A stretch of 29,400 nucleotides of DNA from a virus (Duplodnaviria > Caudoviricetes). The notes under the pieces are model-generated. The model was not told the DNA's origin. It saw only the letters and a list, made by a program, of their open reading frames with translations, and did not search any database. Made by a program: the position numbers and the translations under genes. Of the stretch, positions 2,441 through 27,165 are shown in pieces (within the stretch, counting starts at the first letter, position 1; each line of letters begins with the position of its first letter). The stretch covers positions 1 through 29,400 of the IMG/VR virus record IMGVR_UViG_3300037010_001239; one strand, written 5' to 3'.

Positions 2441-4147
2441 TTATGCAGATGTTATTGTTTCCCAAGCAGTTGCACCACCAATTCTTAATTTATTTAATGT
2501 TGTATCAAAATACATTGCACCAATCCTATATGCAGGAGCTGTTGCTGTTGTAAATTGTGGTATATCTACTAAATCACCAGTAAATGTCGCACCTTTATTT
2601 GCTTGTAAATGCCCAGCAAATCCACCAGAACCAGCTAAAAAGTTATTTCTTGCATATGGATAAAAACCACAATAAACAAAATTATTATCTTTACTAATTA
2701 ATAAATATTGAGAGAATCCAGCACCTAATACTAATGGTGTTAATATTTCTAATGTCCCAAAATTTTGATCTATTTTACATATATTGATTGATCCAGAGCT
2801 TGTATAGTCTTTAAAGTATAAAAATTTACCAGTATTATCTATTGTTAAACTACTCATACTTGAATAAGTTCCAATATCAGAACCTATTTTTGTAATATTT
2901 CCATTTGTTTTATTTATTGAAAATATTGAAATCCCATTTGTTCCAGCAGCATTACTAACATATAAAAATCTACCAGTTGGTTCTACTATTAGTTCATATG
3001 GAAATGAAAGTGTTGAAGCTGTTGTTTGTATTAATGTTAAAAAACCAGTTGTTTGATTTATTGAATAAACAAGTATATTACTTATATTTAAACCCAAACT
3101 ATTTGTTAAATATAAATAACTACCAGTTGGATCAATAGTCATATAAGATAAGGAAGATCCACCAGGAGTAATATCAGTACCTGACGATGTTAATTCACCT
3201 GTTGTTTGATCTATTGAAAACATAGAAATAGTTGAGTTACTTGTATTTATAGCATATAAAAATCTACCAAATGGATCAATAGTTAATGACTTTGCATATG
3301 AACTTATTAATGTATCTGAACTAATGCTTGTTAAAGAACCAGATGTATTTATTGTATATTTTATTATATGAGAATTTGGATTTAATTGATTTAGTTGATA
3401 TAAAAATCTACCAAATGGATCAGTTACTACCTCAGTTGCAGAAGCACCATTATTATATTTAAAAGTTAATAACCCATTTGTTTTATTAATTGAATATGTT
3501 TTTAAATTTCCACTATAATTCATAAAAACATAATTATTAGTTAATGCAAATGAACCATAACCTGAATATAAAGGTATTCCATTTTGTGTTAATTGTCCAT
3601 CATAAATATTTGTATCTTTTGTTGGAGCTAAAACTGGATATGATGATTGTAAAAAAGTTGAACCTCCACCACCAGATGCACTAATTACACCAGCACCATT
3701 AATAGTTACTGTTGTTCCATCAACTTTAACACCACCTAATACTGTTGTTGATGCTGTTGGTAAAACATAACCACCTTTTGAAAAAAATGACCTATAATCT
3801 ATATACGAAATAACAGATGCTGAACCTGTTATAATAGAATATAAGTTTGTATATCCAACACCTAAAAATCCAGTTGTATTTACATGTAATGTTAATGCTG
3901 TATTATCTAAATAAATATAATTTGTTGCTGATGGAGTTAATGTAATAGTTCCATTAGGAAAATTAGTAACAATTCCTGCTTCATTTATATTTCCACCATA
4001 ATAACCCCATGTTAAAGATGAAGTAGTTGAAGAACGACGACCAAATAATGAAGCAGGTGACGATGCATCAAATAAAGCATTTGCTGTTATTTCTTTTTGT
4101 GCTTGGCTTGAACTTATTAAATCTAAATTTGTTGTGCTATTTGCCAT
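2441..4147 (-). CDS. Tail fibre / receptor-binding protein with lactonase-like beta-propeller
   Basis: Last gene of tail module. DUF2793-like N-terminus (SQAQKEITANALFD), LPTASTTVLGGVKV fibre motif, repeated blades DPFGRFLY (x2), DPTGSYLY, EPTGRFLY, DNTGKFLY. Confidence 0.75.
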   Translation of the reverse strand: MANSTTNLDLISSSQAQKEITANALFDASSPASLFGRRSSTTSSLTWGYYGGNINEAGIVTNFPNGTITLTPSATNYIYLDNTALTLHVNTTGFLGVGYTNLYSIITGSASVISYIDYRSFFSKGGYVLPTASTTVLGGVKVDGTTVTINGAGVISASGGGGSTFLQSSYPVLAPTKDTNIYDGQLTQNGIPLYSGYGSFALTNNYVFMNYSGNLKTYSINKTNGLLTFKYNNGASATEVVTDPFGRFLYQLNQLNPNSHIIKYTINTSGSLTSISSDTLISSYAKSLTIDPFGRFLYAINTSNSTISMFSIDQTTGELTSSGTDITPGGSSLSYMTIDPTGSYLYLTNSLGLNISNILVYSINQTTGFLTLIQTTASTLSFPYELIVEPTGRFLYVSNAAGTNGISIFSINKTNGNITKIGSDIGTYSSMSSLTIDNTGKFLYFKDYTSSGSINICKIDQNFGTLEILTPLVLGAGFSQYLLISKDNNFVYCGFYPYARNNFLAGSGGFAGHLQANKGATFTGDLVDIPQFTTATAPAYRIGAMYFDTTLNKLRIGGATAWETITSA

Positions 4148-14020: not shown

Positions 14021-14609
14021 TATATCATTCTTACCTTTATTTTTTTATTTTTATTTACATCATGAGGTATATCTTTTAATAATTCGTGAATGCTTTCTTG
14101 TGTATTTTCTATTTTTTTCTTCTTTTTATTTTCAAATCCCATAAATCCTTTAACTAAAAGATGTAAAGGTGGATTATCAGCAAAATATTCATTCATAGAG
14201 ATAAGACGGGGTATATCCATACATTCCTCAATATACTCCCATGTCCATCCAGTGCAAACGATTAAATGAGAGTATATTTCACCCCAATTTATTTTTTTGC
14301 TTCTGCTGTACCAACCTCATCTTTATTAACATTTGTCATTCCAGAAGTTGACATAATATTTACAAAAATTGTTTGAATATTTGATACATCAATTAAATCA
14401 GCAACATCATCTCTTGTTATATCTGGATAATTTCTTTTTAATGAAGCATGAGCTATATCAATAATTGCTGATATTTGGTTTGTTTGAGAATCGCTAGAAG
14501 TTACAGCATCAATTTTATCTTGTAATCTTTCAACAGCACCTAATGATAATGATGGGAATACATAACGAGTACCACCTAATTCAATTTCAAAACCTTTATA
14601 TTTTGTCAT
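14020..14609 (-). CDS. Tail assembly chaperone, -1 frameshifted long form (gpGT-like, 196 aa)
   Basis: GCA AAA AAA TAA slippery site at 14298-14292. The -1 frame reads INWGEIYSHLIVCTGWTWEYIEEC straight into ORF 14020..14220. Confidence 0.85.
14289..14609 (-). CDS. Tail assembly chaperone, short form (gpG-like)
   Basis: 106 aa between tail tube and tape measure genes. AAGGA RBS; TTGATT-N16-TATAAT at 14672-14645. Confidence 0.85.
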   Translation of the reverse strand: MTKYKGFEIELGGTRYVFPSLSLGAVERLQDKIDAVTSSDSQTNQISAIIDIAHASLKRNYPDITRDDVADLIDVSNIQTIFVNIMSTSGMTNVNKDEVGTAEAKK

Positions 14610-20365: not shown

Positions 20366-20614
20366 TTATTTCTTTTCTTCATTTAAAATAAAATCTTTTT
20401 TTGCTTTATTTTGATTAACACATAAAGCATATATTTTTTTATTTTCTATAATAACATTTATAAATTCAGCAGGAGTTCCAACTTTTGGTTTAATATATTC
20501 TTGGCAATCTTCCATAATTTCATTTGGAGCAATTAAAGTAGCTGTATTTACAACTTTTGGCATATTTGCACAACTAGATAATAAAAGTGTTAATAATAGG
20601 CTAATTTTAATCAT
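20366..20614 (-). CDS. o-spanin (Rz1-like lipoprotein)
   Basis: Signal peptide with lipobox LSSC, further Cys and Pro residues, ATGA overlap with the i-spanin. Confidence 0.75.
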   Translation of the reverse strand: MIKISLLLTLLLSSCANMPKVVNTATLIAPNEIMEDCQEYIKPKVGTPAEFINVIIENKKIYALCVNQNKAKKDFILNEEKK

Positions 20615-20997
20615 TTTATAGCATCCAATGAGTCGTTTAATGTTTTTAAATCAGTATTATTAATAGAGCAATCTTTACTATTTAATTGAGGATTGTCATG
20701 TATTAATTTATTAACTATTACAACCCTATCTTTATAAACTGTTTCAATCTGTTTCTCTGCTTTAACTACTTCAATTGCTTTTTGTTGAATTAAACCTTGT
20801 TTTAATGCTTGTTGTTTTAATTCTTTATCTAGTGCTATATTATCAATATTTTGTTGAAAAATAACGCCTTTATTATAACCTAAATGATGAGAGTACATAA
20901 TAGAACATATTAATAAAATTATAATAAGAATAATTTGACCTATTTTTGTTGAGAAAAAATCACTAATATATTTTAAAACTAATAAAATTATTGACAT
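20611..20997 (-). CDS. i-spanin (Rz-like)
   Basis: N-terminal TM helix, coiled coil, C-terminal Cys. TTGTTT-N17-TATAAT at 21044-21016. Confidence 0.75.
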   Translation of the reverse strand: MSIILLVLKYISDFFSTKIGQIILIIILLICSIMYSHHLGYNKGVIFQQNIDNIALDKELKQQALKQGLIQQKAIEVVKAEKQIETVYKDRVVIVNKLIHDNPQLNSKDCSINNTDLKTLNDSLDAIK

Positions 20998-21100
20998 ATT
21001 AAAACCTTTTTTATAATTATATACTATTTATATATAAAAAACAAATTTTTTTATTGTATTTTATATATTTTAATATATGATATAATAAAAAGGGTTATTT

Positions 21101-21370
21101 ATGTTTGATAATAAAATAATAGAAGCCATCACTTTATCAAGTCAAGCACATCATTTAAACTGTATGCTTGCTATATGTGAAATATTTGATTTTGTTAAAG
21201 ATGCAAATGCAAGATTTGAAAATACAATAATAAATTTTAATAAAGAAGAAGATGGCACTGTATCATTATATAATAACACTCAATTAATAGTTAATTTAGA
21301 TTTTTCATTTAGAACAAAAGAAGACATAGCAAAATTACGTCTTCTTTTAATATATTTAGATAAACTATAA
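21101..21370 (+). CDS. Hypothetical protein, antisense within the lysis module
   Basis: 89-aa ORF, AAGGG RBS, TGATATAAT extended -10 at 21078-21086. Confidence 0.65.
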   Translation: MFDNKIIEAITLSSQAHHLNCMLAICEIFDFVKDANARFENTIINFNKEEDGTVSLYNNTQLIVNLDFSFRTKEDIAKLRLLLIYLDKL

Positions 21371-21377
21371 ATAAAAA

Positions 21378-21665
21378 TTATTTAATAGGGTTTGTTGTAT
21401 ATTTTCTATTAATTATATTTAAGATGGCTATAATAATAATAGCAGTAATATAATAATTCATGTTTAATGATTTAAGATATGACAATATATCTGATGTATT
21501 GTCTGATAATTGGTTATATAATTCAAACAAAACACCAGGAACTGCAACAATAGCATTACCTATAATGGTTTTACTTTTATACCAAGCTTTTATCATTTGA
21601 TCTTCTAATTCTTGCGGTATTTCTTCTAGTGAATCTTCATTTGGTGTAACTTCATCATTTTCCAT
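21378..21665 (-). CDS. Putative holin
   Basis: KAWYKSKTI, two hydrophobic segments, basic C-terminus. Between endolysin and spanins. TTGATT-N17-TATAAT at 21717-21689. Confidence 0.65.
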   Translation of the reverse strand: MENDEVTPNEDSLEEIPQELEDQMIKAWYKSKTIIGNAIVAVPGVLFELYNQLSDNTSDILSYLKSLNMNYYITAIIIIAILNIINRKYTTNPIK

Positions 21666-21719
21666 AATTTATCCTTTTTTTATATTTTATTATAACGTGT
21701 AAAATATAAAAAATCAATA

Positions 21720-22157
21720 TTAAATTATTTCTTCTAATGTACCACCATTTCTAAAATGTTTAATTGCTTCTGTATAGTCATTAATTCTTCCAGTATATTG
21801 AAAGTGTGCCATCTCTTTAAAATGGATCCAATCATGACCCCAAAACAAACCTACCCCCCGACCAATTTGACCAATTTGACTCCATTTTGGAGAGTTCCAA
21901 TCAGCTTTACCATCAACTAACGGTACAACGTCCATCGCTACTTTAAAATTATGGAAAGAATAACCAGCACGAGCATTAGTTACTATATGTCCGGGTGTTG
22001 TTCTACCTTGGTTAAATAATGCATTTTGACTCTCAGCATCTCTATAAGTTGATGTTATTAATAAATCAATCCCTGCTTCCTTGCATTTTTCTAAAAAGTG
22101 ATTAGCATATATTTGAACGATAGGATGTAAATCTTCTATTTTTCTACTGTTTATCAT
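21720..22157 (-). CDS. Endolysin, peptidase M15 family (L-Ala-D-Glu peptidase type)
   Basis: TSTYRDAESQNALFNQGRT, VTNARAGYSFHNF..AMD, WGHDW..KEMAHFQ. Start revised to ATG 22157 (AAGGA RBS; TTGTTT-N17-TATACT at 22214-22186). Confidence 0.9.
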   Translation of the reverse strand: MINSRKIEDLHPIVQIYANHFLEKCKEAGIDLLITSTYRDAESQNALFNQGRTTPGHIVTNARAGYSFHNFKVAMDVVPLVDGKADWNSPKWSQIGQIGRGVGLFWGHDWIHFKEMAHFQYTGRINDYTEAIKHFRNGGTLEEII

Positions 22158-22202
22158 TGTTTTTATCCTTATTTTTCCTATAATTAGTATAACATAAAAA
22201 AA

Positions 22203-22292
22203 TAAATAAAACAAGTTTAAAATAATACTTGACAATATTTTAAATTGGCTTAATATATATAATATAAAAAGAGGAAAAATAAAAATGAGTAA
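22203..22292 (+). repeat. 90-bp direct repeat copy 1 (promoter, operator, RBS, start codon)
   Basis: 85/90 identical to 23348-23437 by manual alignment; TTGACA at 22229. Confidence 0.9.
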
Positions 22293-23370
22293 TAAATATA
22301 AATTAATAAAAGGTAACTCAATAGAAGAATTAAAGCAATTTCCAGATAACCATTTTGATAGTATAGTTACAGATCCACCTTATGAACTTGGTTTTATGGG
22401 TAAATCTTGGGACTCAACTAAAATTGCTTATAATGAAGAATTATGGAGTGAATGTTTTAGAGTATTAAAACCAGGTGGTCATTTAATAGCATTTTCTGGT
22501 TCAAGAACTTATCATCGTATGGCAGTAGCAATTGAAAATAGTGAGTTTGAAATACGCGATCAAATGCTATGGTTATATGGTACAGGCTTTCCAAAAAATT
22601 TAAATATTAGTAAAGCAATAGATGGTAAATTACAAGAAGTTCAAGTATATAGAGATACAAATTATGATGAAATTGATAAAAAAAGATTAGGAAAATTAAA
22701 ACCATCAACAGAAGAAGCTAAACAATGGGATGGATGGGGGACAGCTTTAAAACCAGCACATGAGCCAATGGTATTAGCAAGGAAGCCTTTATCTGAAAAA
22801 ACAGTTTCTGAAAATGTATTAAAATGGGGTGTTGGTGGATTAAATATAGATGATTGTAGAGTTGAATATAAAGATATAAAAAACGATGTAACCAATCCAA
22901 ATAATGATTTAGGTAGATGGCCAGCAAATTTAATTCATGATGGTAGTGAAGAAGTAAAAAAGATTTTTCCAAATGACAATTCAAGATTTTTTTATTGTGC
23001 AAAAGCAAGTAAAAAAGATAGAAATGATGGGTTAGATAATTTTGAATTAAAAGGTAAAATATATAATGGAAATAATACACAATCAACAGTAGATGGATTT
23101 AAAAAATTAAGTGTAGAAGATAAATTTACTACTAAACCATCAGCTAATAATCATCCAACTGTTAAACCTACTAATTTAATGGCTTATTTATGTAGATTAG
23201 TAACTCCACCTGGTGGAATTATATTAGATCCTTTTAATGGTAGTGGTAGCACTGGTAAAGCAGCAATAAGAGAAAATTTTAATTATGTTGGTATTGACTT
23301 ATCACAAGAGTATTTAGATATAAGTAAATCAAGAATAGATAATGAATTAAATAAAACAAGTTTAAAATAA
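22285..23370 (+). CDS. DNA methyltransferase, N4-C/N6-A beta class, orphan
   Basis: DSIVTDPPY near the N-terminus; HPTVKP and ILDPFNGSGSTG near the C-terminus. Confidence 0.93.
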   Translation: MSNKYKLIKGNSIEELKQFPDNHFDSIVTDPPYELGFMGKSWDSTKIAYNEELWSECFRVLKPGGHLIAFSGSRTYHRMAVAIENSEFEIRDQMLWLYGTGFPKNLNISKAIDGKLQEVQVYRDTNYDEIDKKRLGKLKPSTEEAKQWDGWGTALKPAHEPMVLARKPLSEKTVSENVLKWGVGGLNIDDCRVEYKDIKNDVTNPNNDLGRWPANLIHDGSEEVKKIFPNDNSRFFYCAKASKKDRNDGLDNFELKGKIYNGNNTQSTVDGFKKLSVEDKFTTKPSANNHPTVKPTNLMAYLCRLVTPPGGIILDPFNGSGSTGKAAIRENFNYVGIDLSQEYLDISKSRIDNELNKTSLK

Positions 23371-23437
23371 TAGTTGACAATATTTTAAATTAGTTTAAAA
23401 TATATAATATAACAAGAGGAAAAATAAAAATGAGTAA
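23348..23437 (+). repeat. 90-bp direct repeat copy 2 (promoter, operator, RBS, start codon)
   Basis: TTGACA at 23374, perfect ATATTTTAAA-N4-TTTAAAATAT palindrome at 23380-23403, overlaps the methyltransferase stop. Confidence 0.9.
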
Positions 23438-23630
23438 AAAAGTAGAACTGTTACAAGAGATTAATGAATTAGTAAAATTATTTGAATATACTAGGCATAC
23501 AAAAGAATTACTTGGTTTGAAAAGAAGATATAAAATGTTAATGTGTGAATATGTTAGTGTTATAGATAAAGAAAAACCTAAATCTAAAAAGTGTCCGTTT
23601 GATTATGAAATTAATATTCTTAAAAAATAA
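23430..23630 (+). CDS. Hypothetical protein
   Basis: 66 aa, GAGGA RBS behind the repeat promoter. Confidence 0.75.
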   Translation: MSKKVELLQEINELVKLFEYTRHTKELLGLKRRYKMLMCEYVSVIDKEKPKSKKCPFDYEINILKK

Positions 23631-23642
23631 AGGAGTATCAAA

Positions 23643-23921
23643 ATGAATAAAATTAAAGAAATATACTTAAATTATAAAATATTAATTAAATTAATAAAAT
23701 ATTTATCGTTATTAAGAGATAGTGAAAGAATAGAAATTACAAAAATGTTAGATAATAAAGACTTTAATATAATTTTAAAAGAAATAAGAGATTGTATTAA
23801 TTTAATTAAAGAAGATAATTACAAGTATAAAGATTTAGTGTTGGAGTCAATTAAACAATATATATATTCTGAGTTAATTTATAAAAAATATTATAAAGGA
23901 ATATATAATGAGTCAAATTGA
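23643..23921 (+). CDS. Hypothetical protein
   Basis: 92 aa, AAGGAG RBS. Confidence 0.7.
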   Translation: MNKIKEIYLNYKILIKLIKYLSLLRDSERIEITKMLDNKDFNIILKEIRDCINLIKEDNYKYKDLVLESIKQYIYSELIYKKYYKGIYNESN

Positions 23922-24114
23922 AGAAATAGTGAAAGAAAATAGTAAAGATAAAATAAATAAAGAAAAGGTATTAATTGATTTTGATTTATTTAAATCAATA
24001 ATTCTTAATAAAACAAATTATAGAATAAAAGAAACCCAAACAGGTATTGGTAATAATATTACTTTAATTATAAATGGAATTGAAATAGATATTACTAACT
24101 ATACAGATTGGTAA
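23908..24114 (+). CDS. Hypothetical protein
   Basis: 68 aa, AAGGA RBS, begins MSQIEEI. Confidence 0.7.
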   Translation: MSQIEEIVKENSKDKINKEKVLIDFDLFKSIILNKTNYRIKETQTGIGNNITLIINGIEIDITNYTDW

Positions 24115-24132: not shown

Positions 24133-24270
24133 ATGAGTCAAATTGAAGAAATACTTAAAAATATTAAAGATGGTAGTGAAGATATAAAGGAGGTAAGTAA
24201 ATTAAATGACTCTGAAAAAATAGATTATTATATTAAAAAATACAAAGAGTCAATTAAAGAAAATAAATAA
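24133..24270 (+). CDS. 45-aa hypothetical protein (not in ORF track)
   Basis: MSQIEEILKNIKDGSED...ESIKENK, same RBS and N-terminus as the ORF at 23908. Confidence 0.65.
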   Translation: MSQIEEILKNIKDGSEDIKEVSKLNDSEKIDYYIKKYKESIKENK

Positions 24271-24273
24271 TAA

Positions 24274-24299
24274 AATAGACCTAATTTAATAGGTTTATT
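24274..24299. terminator. Terminator between convergent units
   Basis: AATAGACCTA-ATTTAA-TAGGTTTATT hairpin flanked by A and T runs. Confidence 0.65.
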
Positions 24300-24303
24300 C
24301 TTT

Positions 24304-25074
24304 TTAATAATCTTCTATCTCTTTATTATCTAACTCATTACCATCAGCATCTAATAATACTGCTAATAATGTGCATCTACATCTTGGATGTCCTGGTGGA
24401 GCATAACTACCTCCTGAAAACTCTTTATCTATATCAATTGATCCCTCACGTTCATTATGACGACATAATTGACTTACTTTTGAATCATGAGCAGTCCACC
24501 ATTTTTTCTTTTTGATACCAACAGCCTTATAACTTACTAGCCTAGCATCATTACTTGCTCTATTAGTTTCTGTTCTAGCTATCATTTCAGCACGATTAGG
24601 GCTAAAATTAAAAGAGTTTTCTAATTCTGTTGCTAATGTATCATTAGACCAACCCTCATCCATTGCTTTTTGTATTAAATCACCTAAACCAGAATTAGTA
24701 CCAATAATTATATTCATATCACCAGCTTCAGCAAACATCTCATCAACTCTTTTTGTTGCATCTTTAACTGCTTGCTTTTTAACTTGATCTATTAAAAACT
24801 CATCGTTTTTATTTAAGCTTTTTAATGCTTCGTTTCCAGATTGTATATATACTTCCTCTAATGCTACCGTAACATCATATTTAGTTATTGGTAAATTACT
24901 ATAATCTAAAAGTAATGCTGTCAATATCCATTGGTTTGTATCGCTTACATCTTCATTATCTTCTGACTTATTAATATTGCTATATTTACTTATAACATTA
25001 TTAATTATATAATGTTTTTGACTATTTAAAAATGTTTGGATTGCTTTTTGTATTTTAGTACTACCATCTTCCAT
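24304..25074 (-). CDS. MuF / SPP1 gp7-like head morphogenesis protein
   Basis: RAEMIARTE, KKWWTAHD, C..N, PPGHPRCRC. Frame is open upstream to 25122. Confidence 0.9.
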   Translation of the reverse strand: MEDGSTKIQKAIQTFLNSQKHYIINNVISKYSNINKSEDNEDVSDTNQWILTALLLDYSNLPITKYDVTVALEEVYIQSGNEALKSLNKNDEFLIDQVKKQAVKDATKRVDEMFAEAGDMNIIIGTNSGLGDLIQKAMDEGWSNDTLATELENSFNFSPNRAEMIARTETNRASNDARLVSYKAVGIKKKKWWTAHDSKVSQLCRHNEREGSIDIDKEFSGGSYAPPGHPRCRCTLLAVLLDADGNELDNKEIEDY

Positions 25075-25103
25075 AAACTTTTTATCAAATGGTAGCTCAT
25101 TAG

Positions 25104-26456
25104 TTAATAGTATCTTTTTTTTTTAAGGTCAACACTATATGCTTTTTTAGAGTTATCGTCAACAATAGATTTAACATCATTAGGTACAACAGTTGTGTCT
25201 TGTGTTAATTCTTCATCTGATAAAGGATCTAATGATAAATCTGCTCGTATTTCATTAATTTTTTTAATACCTGCTTCTACATATATTTTATCAATTTGAG
25301 CTTTAACCAATGGATCTGTTTCTAAATCTAAATTCCACTCAAATTTAATATCAGTATAACCAAAATAATTAATAATAATGCTATCAATAAGACCTTTTAC
25401 CCATTGCATGATTGGTAAAAGTCCCTCTTCTTCTGCTATTTCTTTTGAAGTTTCTGATGTTGCTCTATTCATCTCTTTAACAAAACCTTGTGGATTTATT
25501 GAGAAAGTATAGCATATAATACGGGCTAACCATTCATCAAATTCATTTTTTAAAGGCTCAGGCTTTGTATTAAAAGGTTGTACACCACTTGGAACAAATT
25601 TTGCTAATGATTTTGATTGATTTTGATTAATCTCATCCCAATATAATTGGAATTTTCTAATTTGATCTGGGTTCCATTCATTAGGCGTTGAAAATATTAA
25701 ATTTGGAGTATTACCCTCGCTATAATAAGATAGTTGCTGTAATGATTTACGGATCTGAGTATTTACAGTAACTAATATTTGCTCTACATGACTATAACCA
25801 TATAATTTATTAGTTCTTATATTTCTTGGCTTATATATTAATTCTCTATATGTATAATCTACTGCTGGAACACCCTTTAAAATTTGCTGGTATGCTGGGG
25901 AAGTATCATCAATTGGAGTACGACCATTACTATCAATTACTTTTTTAATAGTTGAACCATCAATTAACTCTAATGAAAATAATTTACCACCATTAGTCAT
26001 TCTTGGGTATAAAGTTGCTGCATCTATAACAAATAAATCTTCTAGTAAAGCACCTAACCATTCTTCAAATGTATGTTGTTTATCAGGTGAACTAAAAAAA
26101 TTATTTAATTCTTCTGTTCTACTATCATAAATAACATCTTTATTATTTTTGTTATTAATTTTAAAATCATATTTTAATTTTTTAATTTGGTCTTTACGTG
26201 TTTCAATTATAATTCTTAAGATATCACAATTATCAGCTAATAATCTTAATTCTTTAAAGCCGTGTACTTCTTCTGCACGAGGTTGTATTTGTATATTTAA
26301 TCCTGGTGTATAGTCATACTGTCTACCCTCTGCTTGTTGAGCCATTGGTTGAATTGGTTGTATTGGACTAAACCATGTATCAGGTTTAACACCCTGAACA
26401 ATATATTTTGTTGATTGAGTTAATCTTTTTAAAAAATTATCTTTCTTTTCACTCAT
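25104..26456 (-). CDS. Portal protein
   Basis: LRIIIETRKDQI, LLEDLFVIDA, AYQQILKG, YGYSHVEQ, DEWLARIIC. Between terminase and MuF. TTTACA-N17-TATAAT at 26508-26480. Confidence 0.88.
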   Translation of the reverse strand: MSEKKDNFLKRLTQSTKYIVQGVKPDTWFSPIQPIQPMAQQAEGRQYDYTPGLNIQIQPRAEEVHGFKELRLLADNCDILRIIIETRKDQIKKLKYDFKINNKNNKDVIYDSRTEELNNFFSSPDKQHTFEEWLGALLEDLFVIDAATLYPRMTNGGKLFSLELIDGSTIKKVIDSNGRTPIDDTSPAYQQILKGVPAVDYTYRELIYKPRNIRTNKLYGYSHVEQILVTVNTQIRKSLQQLSYYSEGNTPNLIFSTPNEWNPDQIRKFQLYWDEINQNQSKSLAKFVPSGVQPFNTKPEPLKNEFDEWLARIICYTFSINPQGFVKEMNRATSETSKEIAEEEGLLPIMQWVKGLIDSIIINYFGYTDIKFEWNLDLETDPLVKAQIDKIYVEAGIKKINEIRADLSLDPLSDEELTQDTTVVPNDVKSIVDDNSKKAYSVDLKKKRYY

Positions 26457-26512
26457 TTTAATTAACCTTTTTATTTATAATTATATACTATTATAATAAG
26501 TTTGTAAAGATT

Positions 26513-26574
26513 AAATAATAGTTGACAATAAATTAAATTAGTTTAAAATATATAATAATAAAAGGAGAAATAAA
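26513..26574 (+). promoter_or_regulatory. Repeated plus-strand promoter/operator with RBS
   Basis: AAATAATAGTTGACAATAAATTAAATTAGTTTAAAATATATAAT...AAGGAG. Confidence 0.8.
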
Positions 26575-26772
26575 ATGAACAGAGAAAAAAGCATTGATTA
26601 CATAACACACTTATTCCCGTTAAATACTGAGATTGGTAAAGATATTGCATATGAAACAACTGGTAAAAGAGATAGTGACTATTCAAAATATAGTGACGAC
26701 CAATTATTTAATATAGCATGTCAGCAATTGATTGAAGCTGGTGAAGAATTAAAGGATCATATTTATAAATAA
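26575..26772 (+). CDS. Hypothetical protein
   Basis: 65 aa, strong RBS behind the repeat promoter. Confidence 0.75.
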   Translation: MNREKSIDYITHLFPLNTEIGKDIAYETTGKRDSDYSKYSDDQLFNIACQQLIEAGEELKDHIYK

Positions 26773-26824
26773 GCACACTAGCCAAATATATGAGAAATAA
26801 GATATTTTAAGAATAGGAGATATA

Positions 26825-27124
26825 ATGATAAAAGAAATTACAAAAGAAGATGCTATATTCTTTAAAAATTATTCAAAGGTAGTAAAATATAATAAAAATA
26901 GAACCGATAAAAATATTGAATTAATTAATGATATAGTTTTATGCACAAAAGATAAACACATAAATGAAATGATGGATATAATGGAATATGCTATTTTAGA
27001 AAAAGATTATACTAAAAAATATTTAGATCTTTATAAGAGTAAATATGATAACATTATATTATATTTTAAATTAAAAGGTGAGTTATCTTTAAATACAGTA
27101 GAAAAAATTAAACATAAAATTTAA
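26825..27124 (+). CDS. Hypothetical protein ending LKGELSLNTVEKIKHKI
   Basis: 99 aa, AGGAG RBS, divergent copy of the shared C-terminal tail. Confidence 0.7.
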   Translation: MIKEITKEDAIFFKNYSKVVKYNKNRTDKNIELINDIVLCTKDKHINEMMDIMEYAILEKDYTKKYLDLYKSKYDNIILYFKLKGELSLNTVEKIKHKI

Positions 27125-27165
27125 GTTACTCTTATCGATTTAATAATTGAGTAACGGGGGGAAAC

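Follow-up and report, generated by a model that had tools for sequence, protein, structure and literature searches.

Comparative analysis points to programmed recoding at a conserved A-run between the portal and MuF domains of a phage family

A run of ten adenines (A10) lies shortly before the portal stop codon in the 29.4-kb stretch of phage DNA analysed here (hereafter the window). We propose that RNA polymerase slips on this run and adds one A in part of the transcripts, so that a 717-aa portal-MuF fusion would be made beside the 450-aa portal; judged from sequence, this reading has a probability of roughly 0.7. Unslipped transcripts would give the short portal, transcripts with one added A the fusion (predicted at ~82 kDa), and the third frame, with a stop after 4 codons, another short portal. 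Ribosomal shifting by -1 on this A10 would yield the same protein and may contribute, and it is very probable that the run is a programmed recoding site with two products, whichever mechanism operates. The putative slip signal is conserved at the portal/MuF boundary in three layouts: split genes with A9-10, in-frame genes with A9-10 and a near +1-frame stop, and in-frame genes with an A6-8 heptamer accompanied by a Shine-Dalgarno (SD) element and 3' structure. A preliminary description of this DNA had suggested that recoding joins the portal to the MuF head protein, and the comparative data support this through the run, the register and a MuF ATG without SD.

The features of the window are collected in Table 1. 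The portal ORF matches columns 22-427 of the 717-column family phrog_2662 (profile match, E 5e-72) and the MuF ORF columns 487-708 (E 7e-31), in this order, which places the locus in that family by domain order. The stop at 25104 interrupts the frame between the two domains, and the window therefore represents a split member. The portal C-terminus consists of three Lys codons followed by Arg-Tyr-Tyr-stop. A10, the longest A/T run of the window (five others reach 8), holds an in-frame A_AAA_AAA heptamer at 25122-25116 of the X_XXY_YYZ type; both the run and the portal end are as first described. The -1 frame has a TAA at 25125-25123, which shares bases with the beginning of A10, and from there the frame is open, reading KKK, then 13 residues (ILLTNELPFDKKF) and then the MuF ATG at 25074. 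Frame analysis confirmed the length of 717 aa that had been read from this register for the joined product. A MAFFT alignment sets the predicted linker against the corresponding linker and the first helix of fused relatives, and the two non-productive frames of the window stop within 2 and 4 codons. The window has three features of genes with programmed transcriptional slippage of the Thermus dnaX or tssM type: at least nine A/T at the junction, conservation in relatives and near stops in the non-productive frames.

Table 1. Positions of the features discussed, numbered from the first letter of the window
Feature	Position	Strand	Remark
Tail-fibre-like ORF, lactonase-type beta-propeller	2441-4147	-	PF10282
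A_AAA_AAA (A7) at end of tail-assembly-chaperone-like gene	14292..14298	-	G/GT-type
Lysis genes: M15 peptidase endolysin, holin- and spanin-like ORFs	20366-22235	-	holin- and spanin-like ORFs assigned by eye
N6/N4 methylase	22285-23370	+	
MuF (SPP1 gp7-like) domain ORF	24304..25074	-	256 aa from ATG; PF04233, E 2e-15
Predicted RNA hairpin	25060..25096	-	18 nt 3' of run; -11.6 kcal/mol, z -2.63
-1 frame linker (predicted, long product)	25075..25122	-	16 codons up to MuF ATG
Portal gene	25104..26456	-	short product 450 aa, 52 kDa; PF04860, E 2.7e-17
A10, candidate slip run	25115..25124	-	8 nt upstream of portal stop; relatives keep position
Ankyrin-repeat protein	27852-28220	+	
EcoRI-type adenine methyltransferase	28269-29150	+	

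The MuF ATG had been noted for its lack of a clear SD, and among 21 minus-strand starts examined it alone shows no anti-SD pairing (dG +0.6; the others range from -1.5 to -6.2). It lies 29 nt from the portal stop, the two genes do not overlap, and the predicted hairpin (equally stable in 1 of 200 shuffles; single-sequence prediction) overlays the stretch where a ribosome would bind as well as part of the ATG. These properties of the start, the -1 frame that opens exactly at the run while the other two soon close, and the retention of A10 in sister loci all argue against the view that the run is a relic and that portal and MuF are separate proteins, with MuF weakly started at 25074. This view would fit the position of the ATG at the beginning of the first MuF helix, which means that a protein begun there would be nearly whole, and the peptide before the ATG, which scores negatively against the junction PSSM and whose similarity to the P-I-D-R-x-R motif of the family is not significant. 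It would also fit the low cost of keeping such a run at 26% GC and the separately started MuF of some relatives; overall we consider it distinctly improbable. By eye, PFDKKF of the window had been taken for the P-I-D-R-x-R motif, an assignment that was rejected because the alignment is two columns off and the PSSM scores are negative. Since the pre-ATG peptide does not resemble the motif and the helix begins where the ATG lies, some independent initiation at 25074 may occur.

By itself the run in the window is unremarkable, because three Lys codons and AT-rich codon use make a run of this length expected (p=0.65 by synonymous resampling with the portal's own usage, 26% GC genome). The case against chance is thus one that rests on the relatives and not on the window. 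Of 2,931 protein homologs, the best 120 comprise 71 of at least 620 aa (nearly all of them portal plus MuF) and 49 shorter ones; Lys-Lys is found in the last 30 residues of 28 of 48 short homologs (the window's own excluded), as against 0 of 48 for a control stretch. At the DNA level, 338 loci (at most the best 80 of each search, from roughly 1,800 stretches per collection, with redundancy) were classed with a profile of the fused proteins and clustered by their portal cores with an identity cut-off of 85%. Left out were 34 loci that were truncated or had no portal end and 18 without the anchor motif. Nine of these 18 were checked and comprised a -1 split with A9 (L018), a fused locus with A10 (L069), a +1 split with A6 and six with at most A4. 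Among the 149 remaining clusters, MuF is split off in the -1 frame in 28, split off in the +1 frame in 5, in frame behind a stop in 1, fused to the portal in 69 and missing in 46.

The conserved slippery run and -1 register that the preliminary description had proposed to look for in related phages were found: 22 of the 28 split -1 clusters, window included, carry A9 (7) or A10 (15) before the portal stop, in a class with a mean GC of 0.56. An A7-8 run occurs in none of the 28, and A8 or longer in none of the +1-frame (0/5), same-frame (0/1) and no-MuF (0/46) clusters; a non-representative no-MuF locus with a fragmented portal (L168) has A9. Fisher's test on 22/27 versus 0/46, with L221 (break deep within MuF) counted as fused, gives p 3e-14, a value that is overstated, the clusters being related. 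Of the six split -1 clusters without A9-10, L187 has A_AAA_AAG (A6 only, 3' z -2.4), L014 has T_TTA_AAA, one is L221, and the other three show ordinary coupled starts; such MuF starts were seen in the split relatives L025, L151, L320 and L231. The plasmid matches examined added no split case, and the portal genes of the cultured Brevundimonas phage Polewnik and Alicyclobacillus phage MMB025 have no A run of six or more.

The runs are concentrated at the junction. Across loci with a GC of at least 0.45 (808,870 nt), 32 A/T runs of at least 9 lie at the junction and 1 elsewhere, and in loci with a GC of at least 0.5, Lys-Lys is spelled AAA-AAA in 30 of 49 junction pairs versus 0 of 14 portal-core pairs. 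A need for lysine alone was considered as an explanation and rejected: the GC-rich fused loci L321 and L331 spell the junction Lys-Lys AAG-AAG. None of the 23 split loci with a run has an ATG, GTG or TTG in the MuF frame upstream of it (23/23), and their first MuF-frame ATG comes 13-124 codons past the run. In most of these 23 loci a P-[IL]-D-R-x-R-like motif, common to the fused proteins, is read in the -1 frame past the run; L115, which is among the 23, has an additional stop in the MuF frame. With no upstream start in this frame, a slip would be the only evident route to the whole domain in most split relatives.

A FastTree phylogeny of the 149 portal cores joins the window to L004 and L102 (support 1.00), its nearest relatives with DNA. 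Both are fused and have the same A10 in the same phase, so that the difference in register lies outside the run. On 93 tips, split-with-run and fused states change 11 times, against a mean of 20.7 after shuffling, which shows that the clusters are not independent, yet also that the split state belongs to more than one lineage. Run length is constant among the distinct sequences within run-bearing clusters (8/8 A10, 7/7 A6, 3/3 A10) and A11 occurs in none of the 149 clusters, which argues against phase variation of the DNA. Whether the window itself carries A10 or A11, a question raised at the outset, was addressed with assemblies: 4/4 Logan assemblies span 24200-26600 in one piece with A10, 0 differing letters and 0 gaps (word depth 70, 92, 32 and 13; they possibly come from the very samples that gave the window, and rare variants are lost in contigs). 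Three IMG/VR contigs carry an identical junction. An A11 assembly error is unlikely given four identical assemblies at depths of 13-92. These data and the shared A10 of the fused sisters make it highly improbable that the register reflects a DNA-level switch (A10/A11 phase variation by replication slippage) or a recurrent homopolymer error in the assembly of a plain fusion gene, even though homopolymers are prone to indels and an in-frame A10/A11 that lost one A would take on the register of the window. L187 and L023/L024 are closely related and one A of the heptamer sets their registers apart, which would also fit such a switch. The protein relatives P0014, P0024, P0032, P0037 and P0043 end like L187.

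The fused relatives carry signals of two kinds, and a slip in such an in-frame gene would make the short portal. Among the 69 fused clusters, 14 have A9-A10 and 20 have A6-A8, nearly all in X_XXY_YYZ phase; the A6-8 class below comprises the 17 with the run at the junction, L165, L189 and L197 being dropped because their runs lie off it. In the A9-10 class, 12 of the 14 have a +1-frame stop no more than 5 codons on (control 0.26, p 5e-6), as expected if out-of-frame transcripts are made; such stops are not enriched in split loci (5/22). The heptamer of the A6-8 class is A_AAA_AAG/A, and 14 of 17 have an SD-like element with dG<=-7 upstream (control 2%), mostly with spacers of 10-14 nt and encoded by varying amino acids. 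The 3' fold of this class has a mean z of -2.26, with z<-2 in 9 of 17, and RNAalifold on 13 of the 17 junctions returned no pair of a consensus 3' stem. An early -1-frame stop was not found in the A6-8 class (median 25 codons versus 12 in the control). At A9-10 sites, an SD with dG<=-7 occurs in 1/22 split and 0/14 fused clusters, and a 3' fold with z<-2 in 0/22 and 1/14, respectively (mean z -0.27 and -0.5). No run of at least A6 is present in 35 of the 69 fused clusters, 16 of which have another heptamer-like word; G_GGA_AAR with an SD was found in L109, L195, L206, L316 and L318, and some other fused loci have AAG-AAG and no signal. Together with the split relatives that have coupled starts, these runless clusters show that recoding and fusion are both optional in the family.

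In the portions available of the sources cited here and below, runs of nine A/T are described as giving efficient slippage by bacterial RNA polymerase (PMC5009743), and an SD 9-14 nt upstream as stimulating -1 ribosomal shifts (PMC5009743, PMC3711429). Slippage by RNA polymerase is favoured because the split runs are 9-10 and never 7-8 nt long and because SD and hairpin stimulators are largely missing from the A9-10 sites, and it was chosen for the window because a split -1 gene with A10 is a layout known for dnaX. It is rather unlikely, although this is the main rival, that the same two products arise mainly by a ribosomal -1 shift, or by sliding on poly-A Lys codons, on unaltered A10 mRNA. 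Such a shift could use the in-frame A_AAA_AAA inside the run, and the family does have cassettes of SD, heptamer and stem at this place, including split L187 with only A6. However, the runs of split loci are longer than a heptamer requires, these loci are without SD and close 3' stems, and a -1 shift leaves the near +1-frame stops of the fused A9-10 genes unexplained. In the window, the SD 9-14 nt 5' of the shift site is absent (dG +0.2) and the first 50 nt 3' of the run fold with a z of -0.26. The predicted hairpin 3' of the run would suit a ribosomal shift, but it begins beyond the usual spacing, typical 3' stimulators lying 5-9 nt from the shift site. The tail-chaperone gene of the phage ends on the same heptamer, as the preliminary description had pointed out, and this too is in line with ribosomal shifting. 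The gene lies upstream of the tape-measure gene, and its -1 frame is open into the 14220 ORF, whose ATG has an SD-like element (dG -5.6). The presence of A_AAA_AAA there was confirmed; as an A7 heptamer whose 3' sequence is structured (fold z -2.94), it is a different kind of signal from A10.

Elsewhere in the window, a promoter-like repeat of ~50 nt containing TTGACA occurs in four plus-strand copies (22206-22257, 23351-23402, 26499-26550 and 28199-28250), each preceding a gene cassette on the plus strand that is inserted in opposition to the head module on the minus strand; the copy at 26513-26560 matches further contigs of the same samples. The plus-strand inserts lie between terminase and portal (26575-29150) and between MuF and the lysis genes (22285-24114) and encode, besides the two methylases and the ankyrin-repeat protein of Table 1, small ORFs without assigned role, some with shared ends. 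The lysis genes are in an unusual position, between MuF and the prohead protease.

Portals are usually regarded as homo-oligomers made from one ORF. Partial recoding would give a portal ring with MuF on some subunits only, so that a small number of MuF copies would be packaged at the portal vertex. In SPP1, gp7 binds the portal and is present in 1-2 copies per capsid (PMC5576092), and virions without gp7 are only about 25% infectious (PMC6316719); a partial fusion would bring few MuF domains to the place where SPP1 gp7 goes, which may be its purpose. In many temperate phages the MuF domain brings toxins and other cargo into hosts (PMC5576092, PMC5512222). More speculatively, the prohead protease may cut [LIVM]xK[SA]-like sites and free MuF within the head. 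An xK[ASVD][DE] motif occurs 30-70 residues past the run in 26 of 54 loci, compared with 1 of 54 in the control. [LIVM]xK[SA] occurs 8 times in the protease ORF of the window and near the capsid N-terminus. Speculatively, these motifs may be maturation cut sites, a reading that draws partly on other phages.

For the family as a whole, we put at slightly better than even odds that a widespread group of phages tunes its MuF-bearing portal subunits by repeatedly swapping three recoding designs, makes hidden short portals, and builds a hetero-oligomer that packages protease-released cargo in a Gag-Pol-like manner. The three designs would be RNA-polymerase slippage that lengthens the product, RNA-polymerase slippage that shortens it, and a ribosomal shift with SD, heptamer and stem that shortens it. 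If this is true, a recoded portal shows how a phage sets a low MuF copy number, split and fused portal-MuF genes alike are mis-annotated, and many annotated 'portal-MuF fusion' genes also yield a hidden short portal. The family would then offer natural pairs in which RNA-polymerase slippage and ribosomal shifting are seemingly swapped at one site, a replacement of mechanism described so far for dnaX and IS elements. The signals are present in the cultured Thermoanaerobacterium phage THSA-485A and in prophages of named isolates, among them Limnobacter litoralis (L103) and Herbaspirillum sp. RV1423 (L114). L103 and L110 are examples of fused A9-10 loci, and L107, L037 and L188 of fused A6-8 loci. 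In THSA-485A (L340; CP003186.1), A9 lies in frame at codon 534 of a long portal gene, and out-of-frame stops follow after 6 and 2 codons; at 39% GC this case is weak alone. Many portals without MuF (e.g. L036, L057, L062, L068, L077, L131 and L177) have in-frame variable C-terminal extensions of 100-330 aa, some of which resemble, by eye, the tips of polymorphic toxins.

The two domains are known in the same order from constitutive portal-MuF fusions, described in the available text of PMC7302621 (Microbacterium clusters EA3/EA5/EA8 and EB) and PMC5512222 and also found in phrog_2662 and in the annotation of Arthrobacter phage Sonali. As in these fusions and with free SPP1 gp7, MuF would be brought to the head via the portal; there, however, the domains are described as parts of one ORF or as products of two genes, without recoding, whereas in the window the link would be conditional. 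Unlike the MuF polymorphic toxins (Jamet 2017), the window has no toxin extension C-terminal to MuF: the domain ends ~20 aa before the stop, with no further Pfam match. The preliminary description knew of no portal-MuF recoding site, and we likewise found no paper on one in the open-access literature, although one supplement of PMC3711429, outside the search, may list such a cluster. In the portions available, the words 'frameshift' and 'slippage' are absent from two MuF surveys (PMC5576092, PMC5512222), 'portal' is absent from the recoding review PMC5009743 and from the main text of the GeneTack paper (PMC3711429), and the tail-chaperone shift is the only one mentioned in PMC7911831.

Recoding that sets the ratio of a structural protein to its extended form is familiar from phages, namely lambda G/GT, the T3/T7 capsid, the A2 and PSA capsid and tail proteins and SPP1 gp17.1* (PMC5009743, PMC6316719, as far as available); those shifts are ribosomal and lie in chaperone, capsid and tail genes, whereas the gene here is the portal. 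The closest parallel in layout is dnaX, for which the accessible parts of PMC5009743 and PMC3711429 describe an in-frame -1 shift at A_AAA_AAG with SD and stem-loop in E. coli, in-frame A9 slippage with near stops in both other frames in Thermus thermophilus, and split -1 genes with A10. Like dnaX tau/gamma, the portal-MuF genes would give a long and a short product with one N-terminus, from the same three layouts and two signal types; unlike the clamp loader, the protein is a virion portal, the layouts interchange among close relatives, and the evidence here is that of sequence. The nearest tested poly-A slip that sets the ratio of two forms in a machine is tssM1 of Citrobacter rodentium, where, in the available text, transcriptional frameshifting on A11 was shown by experiment (PMC4256274). 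There, too, the gene is interrupted, poly-A precedes the stop, and an added A restores a C-terminal domain that relatives encode in frame; the relative amounts of the two tssM1 forms matter for an oligomeric machine (PMC4256274). tssM1 differs in being a T6SS membrane protein with A11, whereas we infer recoding at A10 in a phage head gene. Known mechanisms would thus be at work on an undescribed gene pair, and they apparently interchange within one family.
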